Shown one piece after another: positions 37,783 through 40,145 of a DNA stretch of 64,000 nt. The position numbers and the translations under genes are program-made. The notes under the pieces were generated by a model, which searched no databases, was not told where the DNA came from, and saw nothing but the letters and a program-made list of their open reading frames with translations. Each line of letters begins with the position of its first letter. The stretch's first letter is position 1. The stretch is from Escherichia coli (GTDB taxonomy: Bacteria > Pseudomonadota > Gammaproteobacteria > Enterobacterales > Enterobacteriaceae): NCBI RefSeq assembly GCF_003334765.1, contig NZ_QOWT01000016.1; one strand, 5' to 3'.

Positions 37783-38688
37783 TTCAAAGAGATGACAGAC
37801 ACACAGTATATTGGCCGCTTCGCCCCCTCTCCTTCCGGCGAGCTTCATTTTGGCTCTCTGATCGCCGCGCTCGGCAGCTATTTGCAGGCTCGCGCCCGGC
37901 AAGGTCGCTGGCTGGTACGCATAGAAGATATCGACCCGCCTCGTGAAGTTCCCGGTGCCGCAGAAACTATCCTGCGCCAGCTGGAACATTACGGTCTGCA
38001 CTGGGACGGCGATGTTCTCTGGCAATCGCAACGTCACGACGCCTATCGTGAAGCACTCGCCTGGTTACATGAACAAGGACTAAGTTATTACTGCACCTGT
38101 ACGCGTGCGCGTATTCAAAGCATTGGCGGTATTTACGACGGTCATTGCCGGGTGTTGCATCATGGACCAGACAACGCCGCAGTGCGTATCCGCCAGCAGC
38201 ATCCGGTCACGCAATTTACTGACCAGCTGCGCGGCATTATTCACGCCGACGAAAAACTGGCACGGGAAGATTTTATCATTCATCGCCGTGATGGGTTGTT
38301 CGCCTACAACCTGGCTGTTGTGGTTGATGATCATTTCCAGGGCGTTACAGAAATAGTGCGTGGGGCTGATCTGATTGAACCAACAGTAAGGCAAATCTCG
38401 CTGTACCAGCTTTTTGGCTGGAAAGTGCCAGATTACATTCATCTGCCGCTGGCGCTTAATCCACAAGGCGCTAAACTTTCCAAGCAGAATCATGCGCCTG
38501 CGTTGCCGAAAGGCGATCCACGCCCGGTACTAATCGCGGCACTTCAATTTCTGGGGCAGCAGGCAGAAGCACACTGGCAGGATTTCAGCGTCGAGCAAAT
38601 CCTTCAGTCAGCCGTCAAAAACTGGCGGCTTACCGCCGTGCCCGAGTCGGCAATTGTAAATTCAACATTCTCAAATGCGTCATGCTGA
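37762..38688 (+). CDS. gluQ: Glutamyl-Q tRNA(Asp) synthetase (GluRS catalytic-domain paralogue)
   Basis: Longest ORF starts at 37762 (308 aa); alternative in-frame ATG at 37792 ([22 protein letters not shown]...); class I aaRS catalytic region. Confidence 0.85.
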
Positions 38689-38747
38689 GCTATGATTAGC
38701 CGCTATTTTTTTGTCCTGAATGATGTTTGACACTACCGAGGTGTACT

Positions 38748-40145
38748 ATTTTTACCCGAGTCGCTAATTTTTGCCGCAAGGTGCTAAGCCGCGAGGAAAG
38801 CGAGGCTGAACAGGCAGTCGCCCGTCCACAGGTGACGGTGATCCCGCGTGAGCAGCATGCTATTTCCCGCAAAGATATCAGTGAAAATGCCCTGAAGGTA
38901 ATGTACAGGCTCAATAAAGCGGGATACGAAGCCTGGCTGGTTGGCGGCGGCGTGCGCGACCTGTTACTTGGCAAAAAGCCGAAAGATTTTGACGTAACCA
39001 CTAACGCCACGCCTGAGCAGGTGCGCAAACTGTTCCGTAACTGCCGCCTGGTGGGTCGCCGTTTCCGTCTGGCTCATGTAATGTTTGGCCCGGAGATTAT
39101 CGAAGTTGCGACCTTCCGTGGACACCACGAAGGTAACGTCAGCGACCGCACGACCTCCCAACGCGGGCAAAACGGCATGTTGCTGCGCGACAACATTTTC
39201 GGCTCCATCGAAGAAGACGCCCAGCGCCGCGATTTCACTATCAACAGCCTGTATTACAGCGTAGCGGATTTTACCGTCCGTGATTACGTTGGCGGCATGA
39301 AGGATCTGAAGGACGGCGTTATCCGTCTGATTGGTAACCCGGAAACGCGCTACCGTGAAGATCCGGTACGTATGCTGCGCGCGGTACGTTTTGCCGCCAA
39401 ATTGGGTATGCGCATCAGCCCGGAAACCGCAGAACCGATCCCTCGCCTCGCTACCCTGCTGAACGATATCCCACCGGCACGCCTGTTTGAAGAATCGCTT
39501 AAACTGCTACAAGCGGGCTACGGTTACGAAACCTATAAGCTGTTGTGTGAATATCATCTGTTCCAGCCGCTGTTCCCGACCATTACCCGCTACTTCACGG
39601 AAAATGGCGACAGCCCGATGGAGCGGATCATTGAACAGGTGCTGAAGAATACCGATACGCGTATCCATAACGATATGCGCGTGAACCCGGCGTTCCTGTT
39701 TGCCGCCATGTTCTGGTACCCACTGCTGGAGACGGCACAGAAGATCGCCCAGGAAAGCGGCCTGACCTATCACGACGCTTTCGCGCTGGCGATGAACGAC
39801 GTGCTGGACGAAGCCTGCCGTTCACTGGCAATCCCGAAACGTCTGACGACATTAACCCGCGATATCTGGCAGTTGCAGTTGCGTATGTCCCGTCGTCAGG
39901 GTAAACGCGCATGGAAACTGCTGGAGCATCCTAAGTTCCGTGCGGCTTATGACCTGTTGGCCTTGCGAGCTGAAGTTGAGCGTAACGCTGAACTGCAGCG
40001 TCTGGTGAAATGGTGGGGTGAGTTCCAGGTTTCCGCGCCACCAGACCAAAAAGGGATGCTCAACGAGCTGGATGAAGAACCGTCACCGCGTCGTCGTACT
40101 CGTCGTCCACGCAAACGCGCACCACGTCGTGAGGGTACCGCATGA
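38748..40145 (+). CDS. pcnB: Poly(A) polymerase I
   Basis: Reading frame open from 38727 (TTG); the established initiator is the non-canonical AUU, here ATT at 38748-38750 with gagg 8 nt upstream; nucleotidyltransferase motif [10 protein letters not shown]; stop overlaps folK start. Confidence 0.85.

Follow-up and report, generated by a model that had tools for sequence, protein, structure and literature searches.

The pcnB gene of Escherichia coli, which encodes poly(A) polymerase I (PAP I), and infC are described as the two confirmed AUU-initiated genes of this organism in papers citing Binns & Masters (2002, Mol Microbiol 44:1287). As these papers report it (PMC2939334, PMC3561954, bioRxiv 10.1101/063800, PMC5499595, and PMC4447247), the AUU start of pcnB was established in that work and limits PAP I. 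In the account given by PMC3561954, Binns & Masters also presented phylogenetic evidence, with AUU starts in other Proteobacteria. According to the same source, a cell contains only ~30-50 molecules of PAP I, and overproduction of the enzyme polyadenylates tRNAs and is lethal. In reporter constructs, AUU initiates at roughly 1-2% of the level of AUG (bioRxiv 10.1101/063800), and non-canonical starts are rejected by IF3 (PMC5499595). A search of the literature for N-terminal proteomics or initiation-site ribosome profiling of E. coli pcnB found none (the match to pcnB and retapamulin was an S. aureus paper only), and nothing on pcnB-specific IF3 repression of AUU was found in the literature on the pcnB start.

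Two other systems can be compared with pcnB. The infC gene (IF3) likewise has a conserved non-canonical AUU start that limits its expression, with discrimination by IF3 described for infC (PMC5499595). In some species infC uses AUC, which is paralleled by the ATC found at the aligned position of pcnB in Pectobacteriaceae (see below). A difference is that the infC product regulates its own synthesis, whereas no feedback of PAP I on its own initiation is known. In Enterococcus faecalis ebpA (PMC4447247), a rare ATT start attenuates expression and the annotated canonical codon is wrong. Both the gene and the organism are unrelated to the present case, and the rival canonical codon is downstream of the ATT in ebpA but upstream of it in pcnB.

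The pcnB start region in the window

The window is the whole stretch of E. coli DNA analyzed here (64,000 nt). According to the ORF list and the RefSeq annotation of an identical stretch, its + strand carries sfsA, dksA, gluQ (gluQRS), pcnB, folK, and yadN in this order at ~36.4-41.6 kb, which includes the enterobacterial gene order gluQ-pcnB-folK. All features described below are on the + strand. The gluQ gene ends with a TGA stop codon at 38686-38688 (ORF list and RefSeq annotation), and an in-frame TGA at 38721-38723, located by reading the sequence and tracing the frame, closes the pcnB frame upstream. The start region reads ...ctgaaTGAtgtTTGacactaccGAGGTGtactATTtttacccgagtcgctaatttttgccgcaaggtgcta. 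It contains a TTG at 38727-38729 and, 21 nt (7 codons) downstream in the same frame, an ATT at 38748-38750; the positions given for both codons in the initial annotation are borne out by the sequence and its translation. The frame had also been described as open from the TTG. It actually opens at 38724, directly after the TGA, and what stands of that description is that no canonical start codon precedes the TTG in the frame. Similarly, the gagg element said to lie 8 nt upstream of the ATT is present (GAGG, 38738-38741), but the gap between its last G and the ATT is 6 nt, so the distance of 8 nt is only approximate. The complete match to the anti-Shine-Dalgarno sequence is GAGGTG at 38738-38743, which leaves 4 nt before the ATT; conservation and anti-SD duplex energy both identify it as the Shine-Dalgarno (SD) sequence.

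Read from the ATT, the pcnB CDS spans 38748-40145 (465 codons plus stop). RefSeq/PGAP places the pcnB start at the same position (window 38748, equivalent to the ATT at position 2649 of locus L001 in our comparison), with a CDS of 1,398 nt and a product of 465 aa; the window gene and that of L001 differ by a few substitutions elsewhere in the gene. The product is clearly PcnB: it scores 997.1 bits against the NCBIfam equivalog model NF008634 (cut-off 702), residues 1-464 covering profile positions 1-468 of 469, and it matches the E. coli PAP I structure PDB 3AQM with E = 7e-285 over residues 28-442 (related crystal chains, PDB 3AQK-3AQN). The nucleotidyltransferase motif pattern matches the window at 38943. 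The view that the known PcnB N-terminus begins at the ATT agrees with both the RefSeq start and position 1 of the NF008634 profile, which fall on the residue encoded by this codon. If initiation is at the ATT, this codon specifies Met and the N-terminus is MFTRVANF. At the other end of the gene, the pcnB stop overlaps the folK start in the sequence ATGA (40142-40145), an arrangement usual for translational coupling.

Among complete E. coli genomes, 5,425 of 5,426 match the region 38600-38950 at 95-100% identity, and the 60 nt at 38721-38780 are identical in 5,417 of 5,425, as well as in a K-12 record. One E. coli variant of this 60-mer was examined, and it is changed at position -2 only; RefSeq likewise puts the pcnB start at the ATT in a variant strain. 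Compared with the K-12 pcnB studied by Binns & Masters (2002), the window thus has the same gene and the same site, with identical 60 nt, the same RefSeq ATT, and the same dksA-gluQ-pcnB-folK synteny. There is no difference of substance, the window being from another E. coli strain. GAGGTG and ATT are both intact here, and the sequence does preserve the feature, as had been remarked. The feature is not new: the AUU start of pcnB has been published and is part of the reference annotation, with which our comparison agrees.

Conservation of the ATT and its flanks in Enterobacterales

To compare the start region across species, we scanned one genome per species with a degenerate DNA pattern for a motif located 65 codons downstream of the ATT, and obtained 120 loci, almost all from Enterobacterales, to which the pattern largely limited the sample. 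Since the motif lies so far downstream, the comparison at the ATT is unbiased by the pattern. The pcnB frame was traced upstream to the first stop at each locus. Counts were made on the 96 loci (87 unique sequences) that have the peptide F-T/S-R-V-A/T-N-F and full sequence context. The codon preceding this peptide is ATT in 88 of the 96 and ATC in the other 8; ATA, ATG, GTG, and TTG were never observed. All eight ATC codons belong to Pectobacteriaceae, and each is preceded by an ATT one codon upstream. GAGGTG at positions -10 to -5 is invariant in the Enterobacterales sequences (87/87 unique). The same design, with GAGGTG-N4-ATT-TTT-AAC-CGA, is found in Morganellaceae (Proteus, Providencia, and Moellerella). 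The layout in these genomes is an invariant GAGGTG at a functional distance (4 nt) from the AUU, with conserved coding beginning at the AUU itself. In 46 of the 96 loci, no in-frame ATG, GTG, or TTG lies between the upstream stop and the codon at the ATT position, so that in these 46 species the conserved peptide can be made only by non-canonical initiation.

The pattern of variation changes at the ATT. From -45 to -13, entropy by codon position is 1.60/1.59/1.44 and has no codon periodicity, whereas codons 5-12 show a classic coding signature (0.07/0.07/0.96). As judged from these entropy profiles, the coding signature begins at the ATT and not 5' of it. Moreover, no stop interrupts the frame between the ATT and the catalytic core in any of the 100 loci that have the motif, despite indels that make its length vary from 64 to 116 codons. 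Because this frame stays open everywhere, the region after the ATT is coding rather than leader. Codons 2-4 (TTT ACC CGA, 38751-38759) are nearly invariant even at their third positions, with an entropy of 0.07/0.00/0.14 over the 87 unique sequences, while third positions are free to vary in codons 5-12. No conserved hairpin accounts for this frozen wobble, which may reflect a constraint of the initiation region.

In the eight Pectobacteriaceae loci (from Pectobacterium, Brenneria, Dickeya, and Lonsdalea), the start region reads gaggtgt-ATT-ATC-ttt, the two codons being aligned with window 38745-38750, and the upstream ATT is only 1 nt away from GAGGTG. Four of the eight have no canonical in-frame start upstream, and initiation there must thus occur at AUU(-1) or AUC. 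In Providencia stuartii NCTC11800, an extra T occurs in a T-run ~40 nt past the ATT (AATATTTTTATCG vs AATATTTTATCG in P. vermicola). This T, which shifts the ATT-led peptide into a different frame from the remainder of pcnB, represents either an assembly error in the homopolymer or a genuine frameshift.

Upstream and downstream start codons

The codons that compete with the ATT lie on both sides of it. Use of the canonical TTG at 38727 as the main start, which would give a 472-aa protein and reduce the ATT to an ordinary internal Ile codon, is to be considered extremely unlikely. This TTG is in frame, is the first such codon past the upstream stop, and lies 3' of a predicted -10 element (see below), so it is probably transcribed. 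It is also unchanged in the 5,417 E. coli genomes with the identical 60-mer, but the whole 60-mer is invariant within the species, and its invariance does not separate the TTG from the ATT. When SD strength was computed as the duplex of the 20 nt 5' of a codon with the 16S 3' end, against a window-wide background, the TTG was found to be without an SD (at -2.3 kcal/mol, its duplex is weaker than the window average of -3.4), while the duplex for the ATT reaches -9.8 kcal/mol, a value between the window's 5th and 1st percentiles. Of the 96 loci, only 30 have TTG at the position of the E. coli TTG; 5 have ATG, 6 have a TAG stop, and the others have various sense codons. The absence of any canonical upstream start in 46 loci and the lack of codon-periodic conservation upstream of the SD argue in the same direction. 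If the ATT were an internal Ile codon, all three Ile codons (ATT, ATC, and ATA) should turn up at this site, yet ATT predominates (88/96) and the only substitute is a clade-specific ATC. Finally, RefSeq and published experiments put the start at the ATT. The initial annotation's preference for the ATT thus has the backing of RefSeq, the literature, and the 96-locus comparison. An in-frame TTG, ATG, or GTG in a short open stretch is unremarkable. Such a codon occurs in 53 of 101 related loci, against ~35 expected from base composition; these loci are phylogenetically non-independent, and the difference is given no weight here. In five loci (one of them from Salmonella enterica subsp. arizonae), the -7 codon is an ATG with no visible SD. 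There, gene callers probably prefer the ATG, lengthening PcnB by 7 residues.

We regard as very improbable, though slightly less so than TTG initiation, that the functional start is the GTG at 38832-38834 (Val29) or the ATG at 38901-38903 (Met52, the first in-frame ATG by frame tracing), with 38748-38831 serving as a leader or with a truncated second isoform made beside the AUU product. Several observations point to the neighborhood of residue 29. The first residue covered by the broad PcnB model TIGR01942 is residue 31, the crystal chains of PDB 3AQK-3AQN begin at residue 28/29, residue 29 is Met in most relatives, and non-Enterobacterales homologs as well as two endosymbionts open with ATG at this point. 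In addition, PMC2939334 discusses a downstream ATG and a sigma-S promoter (pS1) located 3' of the ATT, together with two bands in anti-PAP I western blots, and suggests a shorter variant. On the other hand, several genera have Ile or Leu at residue 29, as would be the case for an internal hydrophobic residue; the GTG has no good SD (-4.5 kcal/mol), and the ATG, preceded by a weak SD (-4.0 kcal/mol), is replaced by Leu in most genera. Together with the NF008634 profile, which covers the protein from residue 1, the coding entropy of codons 5-12 and the universally open frame between the ATT and the core show that the N-terminal extension evolves as protein, and a downstream codon is thus ruled out as the sole start. 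A downstream start that yields an additional minor, shorter isoform is possible. Liu and Parkinson are said to have proposed an ATG as the pcnB start in 1989, and this was probably the ATG at 38901.

With the AUU as the start, the 28 residues that precede Val29 are, from the homologs compared, an Enterobacterales-specific N-terminal extension. Its conserved peptide (codons 2-15, 38751-38792) is outside the crystallized core. Two symbionts with reduced genomes, the secondary endosymbiont of Heteropsylla cubana and Ca. Hartigia pinicola, are without the ATT-led peptide and have an ATG next to the core (MIVPRDQH; MTNETDENITIIPR). In Yersinia and Serratia (nine loci) and in Morganellaceae (five loci), ~30-90 extra codons separate the N-terminal peptide from the core. 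These codons are charged and poorly conserved, and the distance from the ATT to GGGVRD is 94-116 codons or more vs 65 in E. coli. Given this long variable insert, the N-terminal peptide seems to form a module of its own, attached through a flexible linker.

Leader RNA and control of PAP I synthesis

A promoter scan predicted a sigma-70-type promoter upstream of the start region, with a -35-like hexamer TTCTCA at 38668-38673, inside the 3' end of gluQ, and a -10-like hexamer TATGAT at 38691-38696 that is followed by the GC-rich TAGCCGC. The promoter consensus CATTCTCAAA...GCTATGATTAGCCGCT is conserved, CATTCTCAAA being part of the consensus of 80 unique contexts, and 95 of 101 loci have TATGAT 5' of the ATT. 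This sigma-70-like promoter astride the gluQ stop is probably the published pB promoter, and the GC-rich discriminator after TATGAT would fit the reported ppGpp/DksA control. The transcript is predicted to start near 38703, which would place both the TTG and the ATT on the mRNA. TTGACA at 38727-38732 was also considered as a -35 box and was discarded, the promoter scan having given no matching -10.

An out-of-frame small ORF (ATGATG...TAA) at 38720-38767, with 15 codons, overlaps both the SD and the ATT and has no SD of its own. It was rejected as a conserved regulatory uORF, with ATG in that frame in only 10 of 81 unique contexts, and is probably incidental.

The block GAGGUG-N4-AUU-UUU-ACC-CGA is frozen throughout Enterobacterales, including the third positions of codons 2-4, and it is therefore conceivable, though unlikely, that it acts as a sequence-specific translational operator, either as an IF3/growth-rate sensor or as the target of an RNA or protein, with initiation moved to the adjacent AUU or AUC in Pectobacteriaceae. 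No conserved RNA structure that would back this reading was found in a shuffled-fold test or with RNAalifold on 30 genera. Specifically, a regulatory hairpin at the start was rejected, as the E. coli stretch 38703-38800 is less stably folded than its shuffled versions (z = +0.91), and RNAalifold gave -0.73 kcal/mol and no compensatory pairs for the start region of the 30 genera. The E. coli fold also contains a local pairing of GGUG with UACC, which was dismissed as well, being broken in Morganellaceae (AAC or AAU).

We are highly confident that translation of E. coli pcnB is initiated in this region of the window, at the AUU at 38748-38750, and yields the 465-aa PAP I. In this best explanation, which as a whole we hold with equally high confidence, the in-frame TTG at 38727 is there by accident, as part of the 5' leader; weak initiation at it is conceivable but finds no support. 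The invariant, strong SD GAGGUG (38738-38743) places ribosomes on the mRNA, and initiation follows at the non-canonical AUU to produce the 465-aa poly(A) polymerase I. The AUU would pair imperfectly with initiator tRNA and be discriminated against by IF3; as a result, initiation would be inefficient and a cell would hold no more than a few tens of PAP I molecules. By analogy with infC, we infer that IF3 discrimination at the AUU would determine the output of pcnB. PMC3561954 speaks of a "poor ribosome binding site" for pcnB, in contrast to the strong, well-spaced SD found here. The proposal in the initial annotation that AUU is thought to hold poly(A) polymerase I at a low level is in line with the literature citing Binns & Masters (2002). 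An excess of PAP I is toxic.

The window leaves the current understanding of pcnB unchanged. In practice, ORF callers limited to ATG, GTG, and TTG pick the wrong pcnB start, choosing the TTG or a downstream codon in place of the AUU.
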